A DNA stretch of 38,365 bases from a virus (Duplodnaviria > Heunggongvirae > Uroviricota > Caudoviricetes). Where the stretch lies: IMG/VR virus record IMGVR_UViG_2778261245_000001, positions 1 to 38,365 of that record; one strand, given 5' to 3'. Below the pieces are notes generated by a model. The model saw only the letters and a program-made list of their open reading frames with translations, made no database searches and was not told the origin of the DNA. The translations under genes and the position numbers were made by a program. This document shows positions 3,862-15,514 of this stretch, piece after piece (positions within the stretch are counted from its first letter, which is position 1; each line of letters opens with the position of its first letter).

Positions 3862-4062
3862 ATGAAAGCGTATTGGGACTCTTTAACCAAAGAACAGCAG
3901 GGCGAGTTGGCCGGAAAAGTTGGCTCAACACCTGGCTACTTACGGCTGGTTTTCAATGGCTATAAAAAAGCCAGTTTTGTGCTGGCTAAAAAACTTGAGC
4001 AATGCACGTCAGGTGCAATTACGAAATCTGACTTAAGACCGGATATCTATCCGAAAGATTAG
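3862..4062 (+). CDS. Cro-like small HTH regulator
   Basis: 66 aa from ATG 3862 with GGAGG RBS at about 3847-3851; divergent from cI; ORF track lists a longer version from 3838. Confidence 0.7.
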   Translation: MKAYWDSLTKEQQGELAGKVGSTPGYLRLVFNGYKKASFVLAKKLEQCTSGAITKSDLRPDIYPKD

Positions 4063-5007: not shown

Positions 5008-5949
5008 ATGAGCACTAAATTAACCGGCTATGTATGGGATGGTTGCGCTGCGTCAGGCATGAAATTATCCAGCGTGGCAATTATGGCCCGCCTGGCTGAT
5101 TTCAGTAATGACGAAGGTGTGTGCTGGCCATCAATTGAAACCATTGCCCGTCAGATTGGCGCGGGGATGAGTACCGTCAGAACGGCTATCGCACGGCTGG
5201 AAGCAGAAGGCTGGTTAACGCGTAAGGCGCGTCGCCAGGGTAACCGCAATGCGTCGAATGTTTATCAGCTTAACGTTGCGAAGCTTCAGGCAGCGGCATT
5301 TTCTCAACTGTCAGATTCTGACCCGTCAAAATCTGACGCATCAAAATCTGACCCGTCAAAATTTGATGCGTCGAAATCTGGCAAAAAAGCGGGTTTTCAC
5401 CCGTCAGAATCTGGCGGGGATCCGTCAGTAAAATCAAAACATGATCCGTCAGATAAAAAACCTTCTCGTCCGGACGCTTCGCAACCGGACACGCAGACGG
5501 CTGAACAGGATTTTTTAACTCGCCATCCTGATGCGGTTGTATTCAGCCCTAAAAAGCGCCAGTGGGGGACGCAGGATGATTTGACCTGCGCACAGTGGCT
5601 CTGGAAAAAAATCATCGCCCTGTACGAGCAGGCTGCCGAATGTGACGGCGAGGTGGTTCGTCCCAAAGAACCGAACTGGACAGCCTGGGCAAACGAAATT
5701 CGCCTGATGTGTGTACAGGATGGGCGTACTCACAAACAAATCTGCGAGATGTACAGCCGCGTCAGCCGCGATCCGTTCTGGTGCCGTAACGTGCTCAGCC
5801 CGTCGAAGCTGCGGGAAAAATGGGATGAGCTTTCCCTGCGCTTATCGCCGTCCGTCAGCACGTACACCGAAAAACGCGAGGACCCGTACTTCAAAGCCAG
5901 TTACGACAACGTGGACTACAGCCAGATCCCGGCAGGATTCAGAGGGTGA
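5008..5949 (+). CDS. Phage replication initiator (lambda O-like: N-terminal HTH, internal iteron-encoded repeat region, C-terminal domain)
   Basis: 313 aa; N-terminal winged-helix-like segment; central low-complexity DPSKSD repeats encoded by DNA iterons; position after cro/cII-like genes. Confidence 0.7.
   Translation: MSTKLTGYVWDGCAASGMKLSSVAIMARLADFSNDEGVCWPSIETIARQIGAGMSTVRTAIARLEAEGWLTRKARRQGNRNASNVYQLNVAKLQAAAFSQLSDSDPSKSDASKSDPSKFDASKSGKKAGFHPSESGGDPSVKSKHDPSDKKPSRPDASQPDTQTAEQDFLTRHPDAVVFSPKKRQWGTQDDLTCAQWLWKKIIALYEQAAECDGEVVRPKEPNWTAWANEIRLMCVQDGRTHKQICEMYSRVSRDPFWCRNVLSPSKLREKWDELSLRLSPSVSTYTEKREDPYFKASYDNVDYSQIPAGFRG
5311..5455. repeat. Iteron array (candidate replication origin) inside the replication-initiator gene
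   Basis: At least 7 tandem copies of a 12-15 bp unit resembling CCGTCA(A/G)AATCTGA, e.g. gacccgtcaaaatctgacgcatcaaaatctgacccgtcaaaatttgatgcgtcgaaatctgg. Confidence 0.55.
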
Positions 5950-9337: not shown

Positions 9338-9356
9338 GACGGCCATATTGGCCGTC
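9338..9356. terminator. Bidirectional hairpin terminator between Q and the convergent cassette
   Basis: Perfect hairpin GACGGCCA-TAT-TGGCCGTC with AT-rich flanks on both sides; overlaps the stop codon of the 9355-10542 gene. Confidence 0.55.
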
Positions 9357-10542
9357 AGCTAAATAAATATGTAATAGCATAAGGCGTAAGTAAAAAGTAG
9401 AATCTAAATGTAAGATATAAGCCACATAAAACTATAATTCCTAATGAGGCAAAAACAACTTTCTGAACAAGCAATCTTGTGGTTAAACTATCAAATGTAT
9501 CCTTTATATCTTCGTAAATAGCCTTGAAGTTATATTCTGCTTGTTGTTTTTTATGATTTAACTCATCATTTATTGCTGTTAAAGTTTGCCATTGATTAAA
9601 TAGAACAAATAGAATCATAATAGTGAAGAACAATGCACCCAACACTACAGCTGTGTTTATTAATGCTTGACTATCCCAACCATTAGCCTGCTTCATTTGA
9701 GTCGCAACGATAATTGTTGCGACGGGGATACCTAATATCTGATTTTGTATGTCACTGAATACTTTATGTATTTTCCCCATCTCTTCTATTTTGGCTACTC
9801 GTAACTGATCCAGTATTTTCTCGTAAGAAAAACCAGAAACGAATACTTTGTATCCTTTTTGATAACTTTCATAAAGTTGTCCTAAATCCCTTAACATGAA
9901 GGAAAAAGAGGTTTCTTTAGTTTTAGATTCACATGATGATTTTATACTACTTGCTAAAATAGTAAGTTTTTGATCTTTATGCGTATCTTCTGCAAAGTTT
10001 GCGATCAAATTATGAATCAGATCTCCATTAACATTCATAAGATCATCGCTAGAATAATTTACTGGAATTTTTAGTACGTTGGATTCGACGAATACCAATT
10101 CAAAATTTGTTTCATCTAAATAAGCAGAACAATCTTTGAATAAAGTAATTAAGCTCAAAACATCTCTGTACTTGGATATAATAGCAGGCGACTTTTTATC
10201 CCTGTTGTGATAATTAAGTTCGATTATAAAGAAGTTACTGGCTTCCTTTATCCTATTTTTAGGATTTTTTAAATACTCATTAAAAGAGAAATGTAGCTGC
10301 CCCAATCGTAATTTGGGGGGGGTTATATGTAAGGTTATAGTTTGGCCTAACTCAATGTTGCCAGATTCAAGGGTGATGCCAAAATCATGGGGATTCTCTG
10401 TGATATCGTTGATGATGTCACAGAGCTCCTCGTTTGAAAGAATGAGTGATGCTTCAGATAGGGTACCTGCAAATGTAGCGGCCTTGTAAATAGTCACTAA
10501 GTCTTTGAAGGTTCTCTGATTGTTACTGCTCATCCTCTTCAC
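9355..10542 (-). CDS. Hypothetical protein with large N-terminal soluble domain and C-terminal two-helix transmembrane hairpin (cassette gene B)
   Basis: 395 aa, AT-rich codon usage; hydrophobic segments ALINTAVVLGALFFTIMILFVLF and VVFASLGIIVLCGLYLTFRFYFLL near the C-terminus; start overlaps upstream gene stop (GAGGATGAG); ATG at 10533 is an alternative start. Confidence 0.6.
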   Translation of the reverse strand: MKRMSSNNQRTFKDLVTIYKAATFAGTLSEASLILSNEELCDIINDITENPHDFGITLESGNIELGQTITLHITPPKLRLGQLHFSFNEYLKNPKNRIKEASNFFIIELNYHNRDKKSPAIISKYRDVLSLITLFKDCSAYLDETNFELVFVESNVLKIPVNYSSDDLMNVNGDLIHNLIANFAEDTHKDQKLTILASSIKSSCESKTKETSFSFMLRDLGQLYESYQKGYKVFVSGFSYEKILDQLRVAKIEEMGKIHKVFSDIQNQILGIPVATIIVATQMKQANGWDSQALINTAVVLGALFFTIMILFVLFNQWQTLTAINDELNHKKQQAEYNFKAIYEDIKDTFDSLTTRLLVQKVVFASLGIIVLCGLYLTFRFYFLLTPYAITYLFS

Positions 10543-11557
10543 CTAATTCTGATAAAATCTCTGATCTTAGCGTATCCGGAATCTCGGTAAGTATCAATTT
10601 ATCGTTTTCTGAATCATAAAGAACGCTGCCATCATGCAAGGCCGCACGCTCGAATTTCAGAGACCAATGTTTGGACTTTCCTTTGAAACTAACAAGCCCA
10701 CGTATAACGTTGCCATCAGGCACGAACCCATCAGAGAACTCCAGATCGTCATTGGTTAACTTTTCAACTAACAACTCAGGAGCAGTTGGCCATATCTCGT
10801 TTGCAAAAATTTGAGTGTCGAAAGTTTCACCAGAACGATTTAAATTTTTTAATTTTTCATGAGCCTTATTTAGGAACTCTTCACGTGCCTCTGGTTCAAA
10901 ACCTCTTTCAGTAGCAAATTCTAAAAGTGCATTCCGTAATTTTGTTGTTTCTTGTTTGGCAATTAGAATATCGTTGCAACCTAAAAACTTTTTGAAATAA
11001 CCTGCTACTGAATTTTGCCCCTTTAGAAAGCTAATATATCTCTCTTTGCCATTCTGGCGCCCAGTTAAGTCAATTCGTCCCGCTACTCGAAGTTTAGCAA
11101 TGTCTAGATATTCACTTTCTTGAATTTCAAAATCGTGGACTGAAGAGCCAACTGCTGATGTTAGGATTGCAACCATCAAATAATGATTTCCATTTACCTC
11201 ATTATGGGCAATTATTACATAACCACCAGTAGACATTGATTCATCATCGGCTCTGGCTTTTAAATGATTGATCATTCGGATACTAGTATCATAAAAACTA
11301 TGTGTTTTATTTACGAAATAATCATCAACGATATTACCCATAGGGTAACTATCGCGGTCATCTTCAAATTTCCCATATCCTTTACCTGCTCTCCCAGAGT
11401 ACCTTTCAGTAAGTGCGTTAGAGAGGTCTTTTGATGCTTGCTGAACAGGTTTTTCTGAAGGACAAGGAATAATGGTGGCTAACCCCTGTTGTTCCTTGTT
11501 CATAATGTGAACAATAAACTTATGAGTGATATTAGTGGGGGTCGCTGATGCAGTCAT
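10523..11557 (-). CDS. YejK/NdpA-family nucleoid-associated protein homolog (cassette gene A)
   Basis: 344 aa; similarity to E. coli YejK along the whole length as recalled: N-terminal ITHKFIVHIMNKEQQ (YejK INQIALHQLIKRDEQ), central YLDIAKLRVAGRIDLT...RYISFLKG...FLG (YejK YLDINHADIVARIDLT...RYLTFLKG...FLG), C-terminal KLILTEIPDTLRSEI (YejK TLTIKGTPPNLRDQL); AAGGA RBS upstream. Confidence 0.65.
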   Translation of the reverse strand: MTASATPTNITHKFIVHIMNKEQQGLATIIPCPSEKPVQQASKDLSNALTERYSGRAGKGYGKFEDDRDSYPMGNIVDDYFVNKTHSFYDTSIRMINHLKARADDESMSTGGYVIIAHNEVNGNHYLMVAILTSAVGSSVHDFEIQESEYLDIAKLRVAGRIDLTGRQNGKERYISFLKGQNSVAGYFKKFLGCNDILIAKQETTKLRNALLEFATERGFEPEAREEFLNKAHEKLKNLNRSGETFDTQIFANEIWPTAPELLVEKLTNDDLEFSDGFVPDGNVIRGLVSFKGKSKHWSLKFERAALHDGSVLYDSENDKLILTEIPDTLRSEILSELGEEDEQ

Positions 11558-11673: not shown

Positions 11674-11700
11674 AAACCCGCCGTCGAGCGGGTTTTGTCG
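11674..11700 (+). terminator. Rho-independent terminator upstream of the lysis cassette (candidate tR-prime, the Q target)
   Basis: Stem AAACCCGC / GCGGGTTT with loop CGTCGA followed by TTGTCGTTTCT. Confidence 0.6.
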
Positions 11701-11847: not shown

Positions 11848-12174
11848 ATGCCTCATAACCCAAATACTTGGCTGGAGTTGGTCCAGAGCTGGTGGCGTGG
11901 AGACACACCGCTGGGCGCAGTGATTATGTCGATTGTTATGGCTGGTTTGCGCATTGCCTATTTTGGCGGTGGTGGTGGCTGGAAGCGAAAAACACTCGAA
12001 ATTCTACTCTGTGGCGCTCTGACGCTGACTTTTGCATCCGCTCTTGAGTATGTCGGATGGCCTAAATCGCTTTCTGTTGCCATTGGTGGTGGGGTGGGGC
12101 TGATCGGTGTCGATGCTATTCGTGGGGCTGCAATGAGAGTAATCGGTAATAAGTTTGGTGGCTCTAAGGAGTAA
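11848..12174 (+). CDS. S: Holin (lambda S-like class I)
   Basis: 108 aa; multiple hydrophobic segments and charged C-terminus; pattern parallels lambda S; immediately precedes endolysin. Confidence 0.8.
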   Translation: MPHNPNTWLELVQSWWRGDTPLGAVIMSIVMAGLRIAYFGGGGGWKRKTLEILLCGALTLTFASALEYVGWPKSLSVAIGGGVGLIGVDAIRGAAMRVIGNKFGGSKE

Positions 12175-12177
12175 TTT

Positions 12178-12654
12178 ATGCAGGTACTAAATTCCCAGCG
12201 TAAAGCTTTCCTCGATATGGTGGCATGGTCAGAAGGAACGGATAACGGGCGACAACCGACACGTAACCACGGTTATGATGTTATTGTTGGTGGTGAACTG
12301 TTCACTGATTACTCCGATCACCCTCGCAAACTTGTCACGCTAAACCCAAAACTCAAATCAACAGCCGCCGGACGTTACCAGCTTCTTTCCCGTTGGTGGG
12401 ATGCCTACCGTAAGCAGCTTGGCCTGAAAGACTTCTCTCCAAAAAGCCAGGACGCTGTGGCATTGCAGCAGATTAAGGAGCGTGGCGCTTTACCGATGAT
12501 TGATCGCGGTGATATTCGTCAGGCTATCGACCGTTGCAGCAATATCTGGGCTTCACTGCCGGGCGCTGGTTATGGCCAGTTCGAGCATAAGGCTGACAGC
12601 CTGATTGCAAAATTCAAAGAGGCTGGCGGAACGGTCAGAGAGATTGAGGTATGA
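12178..12654 (+). CDS. R: Endolysin, lytic transglycosylase (near-identical to lambda R as recalled)
   Basis: 158 aa; [148 protein letters not shown] matches lambda R almost residue for residue. Confidence 0.95.
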
Positions 12655-13088
12655 GCAGAGTCACCGCGATTATCTCCGCTCTGATTATCTGCATCATCGT
12701 CTGCCTGTCATGGGCTGTTAATCATTACCGTGATAACGCCATCGCCTACAAAGAGCAGCGCGATAAAGCCACATCCATCATCGCTGACATGCAGAAGCGT
12801 CAACGTGATGTAGCAGAACTCGACGCCAGATATACAAAGGAGCTTGCTGATGCTAACGCGACTATCGAAAGTCTCCGTGCTGATGTTTCTGCTGGGCGTA
12901 AGCGCCTGCAAGTCGCCGCCACCTGTGCAAAGTCAACGACCGGAGCCAGCAGCATGGGCGATGGAGAAAGCCCAGGACTTACAGCAGATGCTGAACTCAA
13001 TTATTACCGTCTCCGAAGTGGAATCGACAGGATAACCGCGCAGGTTAACTACCTGCAGGAATACATCAGGACGCAATGCCTTCGATGA
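12651..13088 (+). CDS. Rz: Inner-membrane spanin Rz
   Basis: 145 aa; N-terminus [31 protein letters not shown] matches lambda Rz; coiled-coil body. Confidence 0.9.
12844..13035 (+). CDS. Rz1: Outer-membrane lipoprotein spanin Rz1, embedded in the +1 frame of Rz
   Basis: 63 aa; signal peptide with lipobox-like LGVSAC followed by proline-rich segment, fully nested in Rz as in lambda. Confidence 0.8.
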
Positions 13089-13338
13089 TAGCGATAATTT
13101 TACTCATCATCCTTCACATCTGGCTCTGTAGACAGGGTGGTGCTTACTTCTGGAGCGAATCCAGATTAAACATCTCATTGCTGATGCTTGATATTGAGCA
13201 TCTGGCGCGCGGTAAGGGCTGTGTTGAGATAAGTGCCAGTTCATTACAAAGCTATATCTAATGGAACCTGAAATAATTTGTCATTGTCATGACAAGAAAA
13301 TTCATTAATGATGAGCTCTCATTATACGGGAGGTAGAT

Positions 13339-13587
13339 ATGGCATTTCGTTATTTTGAACTTACCGAAAATATTCCTTTTGAGGATGCAAGAGAGCTTCA
13401 CGTACAGTTCAAACACCACTTAGAATATGTTGTAAAGGCATTATTTATGTTAGGAACACATGAAAAGCATTTAATTGTTGAAGGCCGGGATGACGAATCG
13501 ATAACACAGATATTTGGTGGGCATGATGAAAAGTTTATGCATCTTTATCATATCGATGAATATGAAAAACGTGAAGACTTAATCTAA
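13339..13587 (+). CDS. Hypothetical small protein, 82 aa
   Basis: ORF with GGAGG-like RBS (gggaggtagatATG); preceded by a perfect 12-bp palindrome TTGTCATGACAA at about 13284-13295. Confidence 0.4.
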   Translation: MAFRYFELTENIPFEDARELHVQFKHHLEYVVKALFMLGTHEKHLIVEGRDDESITQIFGGHDEKFMHLYHIDEYEKREDLI

Positions 13588-13702
13588 CCTCCTACGACTG
13601 TTTTTATTGCCATCATAAAAGCCATTCCTTGCAGAGTGGCTTTGATAATGGATATCCCAACAAGCGGATAAGACAATAAATATACCCACCAGGGGATAAA
13701 CA

Positions 13703-13948
13703 ATGTCTAAAATCACGGTTACACCTGCATAGCAGATCCGCTTAAACCTGCTGGCGAAACTGAACTATGACACCGCCGCTGCAGCAGACGCGATTAAGTT
13801 TGTTGGTGACGATCCGTTGAAGTATCAAATCTTTGTGAACCAGTTAAGCTGGGTAATATCTGAAAGCGGGCTGGTAGCCAGAACGACGAAAGCTATCAAA
13901 GAGTCGGAAGACACACTACTGTGGTTTGAAGCTGAATCTGGTTCATAA
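13703..13948 (+). pseudogene. 81-codon reading frame with good RBS interrupted by an in-frame TAG at codon 10 (13730-13732)
   Basis: AGGGGA RBS 7 nt upstream of ATG 13703; frame reads MSKITVTPA-TAG-QIRLNLLAKLNYDTAAAADAIKFVGDDPLKYQIFVNQLSWVISESGLVARTTKAIKESEDTLLWFEAESGS, stopping at TAA 13946-13948 directly before the next gene. Confidence 0.4.
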
Positions 13949-13996
13949 GTGAATGAATGTGGTAATTTAATCCTCCGCAAAAAAAAGGGGATAAAA

Positions 13997-14218
13997 ATGC
14001 TAAAGAATGTCATAGCTATTTTACCGGGTGACGCGTTTGATCATGTTGTTGTCCAGGACGACCTGGAGATTGTTACCTTCAGGGGTGACAAGGGCGGCGT
14101 GCTTACTATGCCTATCGAGGAGTACGAACTAGACGGGATAAGTTATAACGTCGCACGTTGTGACGGTATGGTCACTGACGAAAAAGTTGAGAAGGCTATC
14201 AGACACTTCACCAAGTAA
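13997..14218 (+). CDS. Hypothetical small protein, 73 aa
   Basis: ATG with AAAGGGGA RBS; ORF track lists a GTG-extended version from 13949; followed by a strong terminator. Confidence 0.45.
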   Translation: MLKNVIAILPGDAFDHVVVQDDLEIVTFRGDKGGVLTMPIEEYELDGISYNVARCDGMVTDEKVEKAIRHFTK

Positions 14219-14235
14219 TAATCAGCTTCCGAACC

Positions 14236-14260
14236 AAGCCTCGCAATAGCGAGGCTTTTT
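14236..14260 (+). terminator. Rho-independent terminator
   Basis: AAGCCTCGC-AATA-GCGAGGCTT followed by TTT. Confidence 0.75.
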
Positions 14261-14272
14261 AACGACAGAGGT

Positions 14273-14467
14273 ATGACAGTGGTTCTTACAGCTAAGCAGT
14301 TTGAAGACCTTGCATCCTTCGCGAAGGAAGATAGCCAGCCTCAATACACCATCGCAACCGGAATAATCCCAGAATTCGAAGATGATTGTGAGTTTATCCC
14401 CGTTTATGCCGGGCTCATCGCTTATTTAGAGTTACTGAATCACGGTGTATTGCAACTCGACCACTAG
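14273..14467 (+). CDS. Hypothetical small acidic protein, 64 aa
   Basis: ORF between two terminator-bounded units; no family recognised. Confidence 0.35.
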   Translation: MTVVLTAKQFEDLASFAKEDSQPQYTIATGIIPEFEDDCEFIPVYAGLIAYLELLNHGVLQLDH

Positions 14468-14541
14468 CGACATTACGCCAAGTATTCATCAAGTGCCTAG
14501 TTTAATGTTAAATTATTCCCTCATTCATAAAAGGGAATGTT

Positions 14542-14943
14542 ATGAAAATAGATCACGAGTATTTGAAAGGTCTTTTGGAAGCTTTCGAGGCGTCTGAAGA
14601 GCCGCATACTGATATAAAGCAGCTGCAGCTGGCTGGGTATGACTACAGCACCGATGAATTTTTATTCCATATGCGTTTATTGGCTGATCGTCAACTAATT
14701 GCTAGAACAGACGGCAAGTATGGGTTTGGTTTCTCTGAGGCTGCTGATGGAGGATCATGGTTCGTTATACCGTTACGATTAACTTCAAGCGGTCATGACT
14801 TCCTTGAAGCTCTCAGGAATAAAGAGGTTTGGAATTCTCTCAAGACCGGCTTTAAAGATGCAAGCATTGGAACATTAGTTGACGTTTCAAGGCGTTTGCT
14901 GGATGGTTATATTCAGAAAAAAATTGACGACTTAATTGGCTAA
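14542..14943 (+). CDS. DUF2513-like prophage protein (winged-helix-like), 133 aa
   Basis: N-terminus MKIDHEYLKGLLEAFEASEE resembles the DUF2513 family as recalled; own terminator downstream. Confidence 0.45.
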   Translation: MKIDHEYLKGLLEAFEASEEPHTDIKQLQLAGYDYSTDEFLFHMRLLADRQLIARTDGKYGFGFSEAADGGSWFVIPLRLTSSGHDFLEALRNKEVWNSLKTGFKDASIGTLVDVSRRLLDGYIQKKIDDLIG

Positions 14944-14960
14944 TATTTTATATAACCATC

Positions 14961-14986
14961 AGCCCCGCAATCGCGGGGCTTTTTTA
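14961..14986 (+). terminator. Rho-independent terminator
   Basis: AGCCCCGC-AATC-GCGGGGCT followed by TTTTT; stem-loop design almost the same as the terminator at 14236-14260. Confidence 0.75.
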
Positions 14987-15077
14987 TTGCCATTATGATG
15001 GCAGATATATTGCTATGGCGTAACAGGATTTCAACTATGAACCCAACAGAAGCAGCTACATCACCGAAGGACGGATA

Positions 15078-15428
15078 ATGCCACCACGCACACCAAAAGC
15101 CTGCCGTGTTCGCGGGTGCCGCCATACCACCACTGACCCGTCAGGTTATTGCGAAAGCCACAAAAGCGAAGGCTGGAAGCAATACAAGCCAGGACAATCC
15201 CGTCATCAGCGCGGCTACGGTTCGAAGTGGGATGTTATCCGCGCGCGTGTGCTGAAGCGTGACAAAGGTTTATGTCAGTTATGTCTGCGTGCCGGTGTGG
15301 TGCGTGAGGCGAAAACCGTTGACCACATCATCCCTAAAGCGCATGGCGGCACTGATGCCGACAGCAATCTGCAGAGCCTGTGCTGGCCGTGTCATAAGGC
15401 GAAGACGGCCCGTGAACGGTTGAAGTAA
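15078..15428 (+). CDS. HNH endonuclease (packaging-associated, HK97 gp74-like position)
   Basis: 116 aa; Cys-rich N-terminus and C..C...DHIIP...H.....NLQSLCWPCH HNH motif; sits directly upstream of terminase small subunit. Confidence 0.85.
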   Translation: MPPRTPKACRVRGCRHTTTDPSGYCESHKSEGWKQYKPGQSRHQRGYGSKWDVIRARVLKRDKGLCQLCLRAGVVREAKTVDHIIPKAHGGTDADSNLQSLCWPCHKAKTARERLK

Positions 15429-15454
15429 GAACCAGTTCCCACTGCCAGAGGGGA

Positions 15455-15514
15455 GGGGCGGGTCAAATCTCTGTGACCTGACGTCTTCCGGACTGCCCGC
15501 CCCATCGTTTTTTT
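15455..15514. other. Candidate cos/packaging-site region between HNH and terminase genes
   Basis: G-rich inverted repeat GGGGCGGG (15455-15462) / CCCGCCCC (15496-15503) with 33-nt spacer followed by T7; inference from HK97-like gene order. Confidence 0.3.

Follow-up and report, generated by a model that had tools for sequence, protein, structure and literature searches.

Small accessory genes between the lysis and packaging genes of an SfV-like prophage form a probable stack of cassettes joined at recurrent terminator and hairpin elements

Between the spanin genes Rz/Rz1 and an HNH endonuclease gene of an SfV-like lambdoid prophage of Escherichia coli (E. coli), six small open reading frames (ORFs) lie on the + strand, encoding in order a 61-amino-acid (aa) protein, an 82-aa protein, a DUF2560 protein, a 73-aa protein, a 64-aa protein and a DUF2513 protein. 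We analyzed this cluster within a viral sequence of 38,365 nucleotides (IMG/VR record IMGVR_UViG_2778261245_000001), which we call the window and whose positions are used throughout; loci used for comparison carry L numbers. We conclude that the region probably consists of stacked accessory cassettes (morons) that are dispensable, are exchanged horizontally and were put together by recombination at two families of hairpins. The stack would occupy a hypervariable slot at the right end of the prophage, bounded by the spanin genes on one side and the HNH/terminase genes on the other, and its cassettes would be joined at two kinds of element: terminators of one family (T1 and T2) and a 47-nt hairpin with an extended -10-like motif (E1 and E2, copies of what we call the E element). 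We favor this explanation because the cassettes occur separately elsewhere, because the breakpoints of homology fall on T1, E2 and T2 and just 3' of E1, and because one of the genes, DUF2560, is dead. The genes and elements of the cluster are as follows.

13076 to 13261, + strand: orf61, a small hydrophobic protein of 61 aa (phrog_11822), whose start overlaps the Rz stop codon
13339 to 13587, + strand: orf82, an acidic protein of 82 aa with an isoelectric point (pI) of 5.2 (phrog_35226)
13608 to 13656, + strand: E1, a diverged E copy upstream of DUF2560, with a -10-like GATAAT
13703 to 13948, + strand: DUF2560 (PF10834) pseudogene of 81 codons, with an in-frame TAG at 13730 to 13732
13997 to 14218, + strand: orf73, an acidic protein of 73 aa without a family, the conserved partner downstream of DUF2560
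14236 to 14260, + strand: T1, an intrinsic terminator, AAGCCTCGC-AATA-GCGAGGCTT at 14236 to 14257 with its T-run reaching 14260
14273 to 14467, + strand: orf64, a very acidic protein of 64 aa, pI 4.05 (phrog_9518)
14468 to 14514, + strand: E2, a diverged E copy between orf64 and DUF2513
14514 to 14539, + strand: hairpin in which an upstream CCCT stretch pairs with the DUF2513 ribosome-binding site (AGGGAA), -7.9 kcal/mol
14542 to 14943, + strand: DUF2513 (PF10711), a winged-helix protein of 133 aa that moves as a stand-alone gene
14961 to 14985, + strand: T2, the intrinsic terminator of the DUF2513 unit, AGCCCCGC-AATC-GCGGGGCT at 14961 to 14980 with five more T at 14981 to 14985

The original prediction had described this region as cargo inserted at the junction, and a comparison of the Rz-to-HNH junction among related phages bears this out. 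In Shigella phage SfV, only 27 bp separate Rz1 from the HNH gene and nothing else lies at the junction, and in SfII the junction holds IS911 and gene fragments. The comparison set of 85 loci was made up of 80 IMG/VR viral contigs with an HNH protein at least 97% identical, four annotated relatives and the window itself; in the whole set, HNH identity is never below 95%. Over the last 600 bp in front of the HNH start, these loci show at least 26 sequence types that are unrelated to one another, and the distance from the end of the endolysin gene to the HNH gene ranges from 305 to 2,837 bp. Homology to the window breaks off on the left at the 3' end of Rz and on the right at the ATG of the HNH gene (15078 to 15428, + strand), which forms the right edge of the variable slot and is where homology with most relatives restarts exactly. 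The whole cluster is present in 6 of 5,426 complete E. coli genomes, with the DUF2560-orf73 part found in the same six; the orf64-DUF2513 part is present in 10, and orf64 alone in about 40 more. The guanine-plus-cytosine (GC) content of positions 13050 to 15000 is 0.35 to 0.45, as against 0.50 to 0.53 in the lysis genes and 0.54 to 0.60 in the HNH and terminase genes; for the flanks in general the figures are 50 to 58%. The cluster varies among relatives and is therefore not core content conserved in all of them: it belongs to the accessory content, and the slot for cargo at this junction is hypervariable.

The boundaries of the cassettes can be read from the segments that the window shares with individual loci.

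13053 to 13700: shared with L003
13684 to 14260: shared with L241 to L245
14237 to 14516: shared with L241 and L243
14238 to 14987: shared with L174
14471 to 14993: shared with L167 and L170
14239 onwards: shared with L002

These comparisons divide the cluster into the modules orf61, orf82 plus E1, DUF2560-orf73-T1, T1-orf64-E2 and E2-DUF2513-T2, with breakpoints at 13684 to 13700, 14237 to 14260, 14468 to 14516 and 14987 to 14993. At the T1 joint, homology to L241 to L245 stops at 14260, and homology to L002, L174, L241 and L243 begins at 14237 to 14239. At the E2 joint, homology to L241 and L243 stops at 14516 and homology to L167 and L170 begins at 14471; at the end of T2, homology to L167, L170 and L174 stops at 14987 to 14993. 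It follows from the shared coordinates that what adjacent modules have in common is exactly T1 (24 bp) and E2 (46 bp), while the outermost breakpoints come immediately 3' of E1 and immediately behind T2. The homology between E. coli Nissle 1917 and the window breaks off inside E. This is the pattern that would be expected if the cassettes had been joined via recombination between short shared elements. The cluster had been predicted to consist of separate terminator-bounded mini-units, and this division has to be given up: the cluster contains only two canonical terminators, T1 and T2, with none behind orf82 or orf64, the comparison yields other modules, and only DUF2513 shows a full unit of promoter-like leader, gene and terminator across its homologues.

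The two almost identical hairpins that had been noticed are present, with small corrections to their coordinates, and both fold strongly (T1, -19.2 kcal/mol, z -3.9; T2, -17.2 kcal/mol, z -3.6). They match at 21 of 24 positions, and the differences amount to one compensatory base pair and one loop base. Their motif has no further occurrence in the window, where 0 are expected. T1 belongs to two modules at once: it closes the DUF2560-orf73 module on the 3' side and opens the orf64 module on the 5' side. Elsewhere, a T1-type hairpin carries the stop codon of Rz1/LysC in its loop (L002), and a T1-type terminator stands behind orf73 (L244). T1 and T2 are nearly identical because they are members of a single terminator family, which is found repeatedly behind the cassettes of this gene pool. 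The idea that T1 is a relic of the terminator of an SfV-type Rz1 gene was dropped, since L244 has the same terminator behind orf73.

The E element was found by aligning the DNA upstream of DUF2513 homologues. Its consensus is aGGCATTACAGCAGGCATTCACTGAGTGCCTGTGATAATGCTAAATT, and this leader is nearly invariant where the DUF2513 proteins are only 58 to 84% identical, regardless of the upstream gene. E forms a 47-nt imperfect hairpin in which a 3x3 internal loop separates the outer stem (GCATTA/TAATGC) from the inner stem (CAGGCAU/GUGCCUG), and the inner stem closes a loop of 7 nt. Two extended -10-like sequences stand in the 3' arm of the hairpin, first TGtGATAAT and then TGcTAAATT. Among 25 distinct sequences, 92.9% of the cells in the pairing are paired, five pairs are changed on both sides, and RNAalifold returns the same fold. 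G-U pairs outnumber A-C combinations 18 to 7, which favors pairing in the + strand.

A covariance model of E, R1, has two matches in the 38-kb window, both on the + strand and both within the cluster. E2 scores 49.2 bits, compared with 77.5 bits for consensus copies. E1, which is outside the training set, scores 20 bits (E-value 0.025) and folds with -22.9 kcal/mol (z -3.0). In other loci, all + strand matches above 30 bits lie inside the slot after the lysis genes. Matches lie 9 to 46 nt upstream of start codons in many loci, with at most three copies per locus at E-values up to 0.1. E precedes DUF2513, DUF2560, DUF6979, HNH and two other small ORFs, most often standing directly upstream of DUF2513, and its hosts are Escherichia, Klebsiella, Citrobacter and other enteric prophages. 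R1 found no E in any non-enteric DUF2513 locus examined, and no Rfam family scores above threshold for consensus E copies or anywhere in the cluster. From its sequence, E may be a weak promoter without a -35 box, an attenuator or an RNA processing site.

Several side observations concern this element. Three E copies stand in a row before successive small ORFs in L197 (2023 to 2069, 3574 to 3620 and 3928 to 3974), and L225 has copies at 2435 to 2481, 2768 to 2809 and 3927 to 3973, in both cases at E-values up to 0.1. The E copy that precedes a 63-aa membrane ORF is followed by a hairpin that again pairs with the ribosome-binding site. The sequence TTTTTATTGCCATTATGATGGCA (14981 to 15003, + strand) combines a T-run with a short palindrome like the outer stem of E1, and the same TTTTTATTGCCATCAT occurs at 13601 to 13616. 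TTTTTATTGCCATCA(T/C) is found again directly after terminators in L102, L105, L107, L178, L179, L187 and L232, where GCCATCA...TAATGGC resembles the E1 outer stem and the inner hairpins are different or missing. This suggests a wider E-like family with variable inner stems, of which 14981 to 15003 may be a remnant.

One alternative is that E acts as DNA, as an operator: DUF2513, a winged-helix dimer, would bind the dyad and repress its own gene and the neighboring ones. E is a 41-bp dyad that overlaps the -10-like hexamers, its sequence is conserved beyond the needs of an RNA stem, and the protein most often encoded directly downstream has a fold like those of MarR and PadR. The excess of G-U over A-C, however, favors + strand pairing, the protein is acidic (pI 5.1), and non-enteric DUF2513 genes have no E. 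In addition, E occurs in loci without DUF2513 within the fetched DNA (L088, L241, L243, L244 and Nissle L246). We consider this explanation improbable.

We now turn to DUF2513, whose gene is the most self-contained of the cluster. The protein scores 50.8 bits in Pfam against a cut-off of 29.6 over residues 2 to 108, and PF10711 is present in all 129 homologues examined. These are 133 to 138 aa long and extend from Enterobacteriaceae to Acidobacteria and Nitrospirota, with 50 to 84% identity across phyla and 16 invariant residues. The inverted repeat that had been pointed out just before the gene is there (ATTCCCT at 14515 to 14521, AGGGAAT at 14532 to 14538); alone it is not significant (z -1.4), and its design, in which the ribosome-binding site is paired, recurs with a pairing probability above 0.7 in 39 of 53 distinct DUF2513 leaders whose stem sequences differ. 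Mean pairing of the ribosome-binding site is 0.81 in these leaders and 0.61 in controls. Downstream, a hairpin with a T-run follows the gene in 39 of 57 distinct trailers, using 27 different stems. Judged from its sequence context, DUF2513 appears to be an autonomous unit with moron anatomy, in which leader, gene and terminator move together across the enteric homologues.

Across 155 loci, DUF2513 has no constant partner gene. Its neighbors include DUF2560 upstream (20 loci), HNH downstream (24) and orf64 upstream (10), and in the window the DUF2560/DUF2513 pair is split by orf73, T1 and orf64. Elsewhere, the gene is found by itself with dnaK, fusA or dprA as its neighbor, adjoining Type ISP restriction enzymes, or in the early region of phage Chlobot. 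In Thiothrix nivea (L089, 1773 to 5408) and in a Syntrophorhabdales metagenome genome (L124, 1602 to 5333), it lies directly 3' of a Type ISP/IIG-like restriction-modification enzyme of 1,065 to 1,075 aa.

It has to be considered whether DUF2560 and DUF2513 instead assist lysis or HNH/terminase-dependent packaging, the cluster being a variant of a conserved late block. The order lysis-DUF2560-DUF2513-HNH-terS-terL is kept in common Klebsiella pneumoniae (K. pneumoniae) prophages whose lysis and terminase alleles differ, several Klebsiella phages have DUF2560 immediately in front of HNH or terS, and in enteric prophages DUF2513 directly follows the spanin gene and precedes three different terminase types. 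A packaging role is contradicted, however, because the genes are absent from SfV and from most of the 85 relatives with near-identical HNH and terS, and because DUF2560 is a pseudogene in the window; its homologue is truncated in Citrobacter. DUF2513, for its part, occurs in the Chlobot early region and alone in chromosomes of Acidobacteria, Nitrospirota and Oceanobacter. We regard a late function as extremely unlikely.

The small ORFs of 82, 81 (with an amber codon), 73, 64 and 133 aa that had been listed between Rz/Rz1 and HNH are all present, and the 61-aa ORF has to be added to them. Segment 13089 to 13260 (orf61) matches about 1,950 of the 5,426 E. coli genomes (about 36%), as well as many P22-like and lambdoid phages, and orf61 is a frequent companion of spanin genes. 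ORFs of this type overlap or follow different spanin families, Rz in the window and DUF2514 in E. coli Nissle 1917 (L246, 2797 to 2933), and orf61 may be an unrecognised lysis-cassette companion. orf82 has no homologue among 50,697 phage records, and moves together with orf61 and E1 as the module 13053 to 13700.

The read-through translation of DUF2560 scores 53.7 bits in Pfam against a cut-off of 25, and its reading frame is not intact. Codon 10 is TAG in four of four copies checked, and since every copy checked carries it, this family member has turned into a nonsense pseudogene; PGAP annotates only 13793 to 13948. An intact homologue in L244, 86% identical, has Gln at this codon (PAQQIRL), the change being CAG to TAG, and a Citrobacter copy is cut down to 35 aa. 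The DUF2560-orf73 pair recurs with a spacer of 46 to 48 bp in L244 and L245. orf73 has only 12 clusters at 90% identity, all of them from Enterobacteriaceae and nearly all 73 aa long. The orf64 family is also small (a profile search over 1.84 billion representatives returned 48 unannotated small proteins); its arrangement with a T-type terminator before it and E behind it is kept in Citrobacter (L241, L243) and in E. coli Nissle 1917, and an alternative GTG start at 14279 has the better spacing to a GAGG ribosome-binding site. Both the orf73 and orf64 families are confined to Enterobacteriaceae.

Database searches gave little functional information. In PHROGs, orf61, orf82, orf64, DUF2560 and DUF2513 belong to groups without function and orf73 to none. 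Scans of the six proteins against Pfam, NCBIfam and PADLOC recognised only DUF2560 and DUF2513, with no curated NCBIfam family. Sequence searches of the PDB with DUF2513 and orf82 gave no match, and our literature search on DUF2513 and DUF2560 found nothing relevant. An AlphaFold2 model of orf64 (pLDDT 49) was unusable and was discarded.

The genes might also be decaying junk, non-functional remnants that drift in a rarely induced prophage. DUF2560 has its amber codon, orf64 and E2 of the window are the most diverged members of their alignments, and the cluster is rare. Yet orf73 and orf64 keep their lengths across homologues that are 70 to 88% identical, DUF2513 is conserved across phyla with its invariant residues, and the cluster copies in the six E. 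coli genomes, which come from different sources, are 99.5 to 99.7% identical to the window. Decay of this kind is very unlikely to explain the cluster.

The packaging, head and tail genes of the window are 97.5% identical to those of SfV, whose genome ends map to 15486/15487, between the HNH gene and terS. The cluster thus takes up the 2 kb in front of HNH, which places it at the right end of the virion DNA, no more than 2.4 kb from the right genome end. Upstream of it are the lysis genes.

11848 to 12174: holin gene
12178 to 12654: endolysin gene
12651 to 13088: Rz with embedded Rz1

A gene of the Q family is annotated further upstream, a terminator (11674 to 11695) precedes the holin gene, and all cluster genes are co-oriented; the cluster sits inside the Q-dependent late operon. 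Between HNH and terS, positions 15452 to 15508 hold a long inverted repeat, GGGGCGGG...CCCGCCCC, which contains the SfV ends and is presumably the cos site. On the minus strand between the Q gene and the holin gene (9355 to 11557), there are two overlapping genes with a GC content of 29 to 42%, encoding a YejK/NdpA-like nucleoid-associated protein (10523 to 11557) and a 395-aa partner (9355 to 10542). The two have weak, sub-threshold matches to the NCBIfam anti-phage pair DS1_1/DS1_2 and look like separate defence-type cargo; SfII and L002 carry different minus-strand cargo at the equivalent position.

Within the late operon, the stack of cassettes would be read in two ways. During lytic growth, Q-modified RNA polymerase from the late promoter would ignore T1 and T2 and transcribe all of the genes, as established lambdoid biology leads one to expect. 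In the lysogen, T1 and T2 would confine transcription started at E, keeping it out of the HNH and terminase genes, and the hairpin over the ribosome-binding site would damp the translation of DUF2513. The most likely role of the products would be an action on the host or on competing elements, and not a part in virion production.

The promoter consensus scan calls a single weak site, TTGTCA-17-AATGAT upstream of orf82 (9 of 12 matches), whose -35-like TTGTCA is overlapped by a perfect 12-bp palindrome.

13284 to 13295: perfect 12-bp palindrome TTGTCATGACAA

The palindrome had been singled out in the original prediction and lies exactly where it was placed, but it has no statistical support, since the window contains 11 perfect 12-bp palindromes and shuffled sequences contain 9.4 +/- 3.0. 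It is conserved only in the 94%-identical copy of L003. A role as an operator was rejected, the window holding no related site and the frequency being at chance level. A second class of DUF2513 leaders (L087, L114, L123, L233, L238 and L240) lacks E and has a perfect palindrome, GTGACATGTCAC, that abuts the ribosome-binding site; its half-sites are those of TTGTCATGACAA, arranged oppositely, a likeness that may be coincidence.

A number of observations weigh against our explanation of the cluster as a stack of exchanged cassettes joined at T and E hairpins. In the window, E2 retains TGtTAAATT but no TGnGATAAT and has a weakened inner stem (49 bits, versus 77 for consensus copies), and E1 reaches only its 20 bits. 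E lacks a recognisable -35, and the consensus promoter scan does not call it. The covariation lends the hairpin modest support, given the high conservation of the columns and the relatedness of the sequences, and a symmetric protein-binding site in DNA would produce similar changes on both sides. That breakpoints coincide with short conserved elements is to be expected in part, because an alignment extends only over shared sequence. orf82 and orf64 are not textbook morons, because they have neither a terminator nor a promoter of their own. Finally, the lysis-DUF2560-DUF2513-HNH-terS order that K. pneumoniae prophages keep could mean a late function rather than cargo.

The slot of the relatives holds a variety of other genes, including Rha, KilA-N, a GrlR-like protein, DUF6979, DUF2441, membrane proteins, a trypsin-like peptidase that matches the PADLOC candidate PDC-S45 and a protein of the Acb2/Tad1 family. 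In SfII (L005, 3388 to 3675 and 4930 to 5550), the peptidase gene is in two fragments with IS911 between them, and L077 encodes an intact 285-aa relative on the minus strand (5029 to 5886) that matches PDC-S45. The L244 slot, after the lysis genes, encodes a 97-aa protein with an Acb2/Tad1 hairpin domain (2542 to 2835; PF24729, 62.7 bits), followed on its 3' side by an unrelated 64-aa ORF, an E element and the intact DUF2560-orf73 pair. In a related Klebsiella-type phage locus (L194, 670 to 853), the small RNA STnc100 (Rfam, 97.7 bits) lies upstream of the lysis region.

What the cargo might do can be considered in the light of these occupants. If the cluster were an anti-defence island, its small acidic proteins would inhibit host immunity, with E providing Q-independent expression early in infection. 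Four of the six products (orf82, orf73, orf64 and DUF2513) are small and acidic (pI 4.0 to 5.2), E has its extended -10-like motif, the cluster is close to the right genome end, and the Acb2/Tad1 protein of L244 is encoded two genes upstream of DUF2560-orf73 in the same slot. Against this, no cluster protein of the window matches a known anti-defence family in Pfam, PHROGs or NCBIfam, the genes are part of the late operon with DUF2560 inactivated, and DUF2513 is also found alone beside housekeeping genes in non-phage settings. The co-occurrence in L244, a single association, is the sole link, and together with the acidic proteins it provides one lead; an anti-defence island is unlikely to be the explanation.

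Expression in the lysogen would instead be required if the cluster encoded prophage defence or superinfection exclusion, the direction in which the original prediction leaned. The slot holds defence-like cargo in relatives (the trypsin-like PDC-S45 candidate), the low-GC minus-strand pair of the window has its weak anti-phage matches, terminators would insulate expression in the lysogen, and the Thiothrix DUF2513 gene adjoins a Type ISP restriction enzyme. However, no defence-model family of PADLOC-DB 2.0 matched any of the six proteins at E-values up to 0.1, and they have no enzymatic or toxin domains. orf61 alone is membrane-like, and it belongs with the spanin. Minus-strand cargo occurs elsewhere in the slot, whereas all of these genes run with the late operon, and the promoter evidence consists only of the -10-like motif. 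A defence role has no direct support, and we find it distinctly unlikely.

A wider proposal goes beyond the stack of cassettes itself. E and the T-family terminators could together be an undescribed mobile regulatory cassette of temperate enterobacterial phages that would be a functional counterpart of the PeSL (promoter-early stem-loop) cassettes of T4-type phages; it would drive or attenuate the transcription of ORFs without known relatives (ORFans) independently of Q and would also serve as a homology patch for swapping. The slot would then be a nursery of E-flanked ORFans, including DUF2513 and anti-defence genes such as the Acb2/Tad1 gene of L244. We put this forward tentatively, as a possibility that we doubt more than we believe.

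Variable slots of temperate phages are where genes for lysogenic conversion, defence and anti-defence accumulate, and whether genes enter them by illegitimate recombination or by recombination at short shared sequences is debated. In this cluster the joints can be read directly, as a 24-bp terminator and a 47-nt hairpin with a promoter-like motif that overlap between modules. For the window itself the conclusion is modest: its genes are optional cargo, and one is already inactivated. Should E be a true promoter or attenuator as well as a recombination patch, R1 would offer a simple sequence-based way to search for cargo cassettes, candidate anti-defence genes among them.

Seen as a cluster of morons, the region is nothing unusual. 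The classical definition comes from the HK97/HK022 concept of lambdoid phages (PMC3594210), and the cluster resembles it in several ways: it is extra DNA that close relatives lack at the same position, its GC content is unlike that of its flanks, it is inserted between two conserved late-operon modules, and it probably has no part in virion assembly. In the DUF2513 unit, the gene comes with a promoter-like leader and a terminator of its own, and a terminator also stands behind orf73. Unlike a classical moron, the cluster is a stack of four or five cassettes rather than a single insert, orf82 and orf64 are without signals of their own, every gene points the same way as the late operon, and one is a pseudogene. 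What the analysis adds is that recombination joints can be seen, in the form of the recurrent E element and the terminator family.

The 'ant moron' of P22-like phages (PMC2629481) is a comparable variable slot of the late operon. In both, one slot holds different non-morphogenetic gene sets in relatives, degraded genes included, and the presumed origin of the sets is repeated insertion and deletion at a single site. The present cluster, however, lies between lysis and packaging genes and not upstream of the tailspike gene, and has no homologues of mnt, arc or ant. Integron arrays also consist of co-oriented small ORFs with imperfect-palindrome elements at cassette boundaries. In contrast to them, the cluster has no common Pc promoter, E lies upstream of start codons and contains a promoter-like sequence, and the overlapping homology fits homologous recombination between short shared sequences better. 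An integron-like reading was rejected because neither an integron integrase in the locus nor an attC core (GTTRRRY) in E or T was found, as judged from sequence and annotation, no attC model having been run.

The closest parallel in working principle is the PeSL of T4-type phages, a repeated motif of promoter and stem-loop that lies upstream of ORFans in hyperplastic regions and mediates modular shuffling (PMC2839356, PMC4122927). There are clear differences, as the hosts of E are temperate lambdoid phages of Enterobacteriaceae and not lytic T4-type phages, its sequence is unrelated and has no -35 box, its promoter or attenuator role is putative, separate T-family terminators also act as joints in the cluster, and no mini-circles are known. 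Like PeSL, E is a short, repeated, intergenic element between the stop codon of one small ORF and the next ribosome-binding site, its stem-loop overlaps a -10 promoter-like sequence, it is concentrated in a hyperplastic region full of ORFans, and it coincides with the breakpoints of insertions and replacements between relatives. The likeness is one of working principle only and does not imply membership of the PeSL family; if E is a true promoter or attenuator and a recombination patch, the PeSL principle would extend from lytic T4-type phages to lambdoid prophages.

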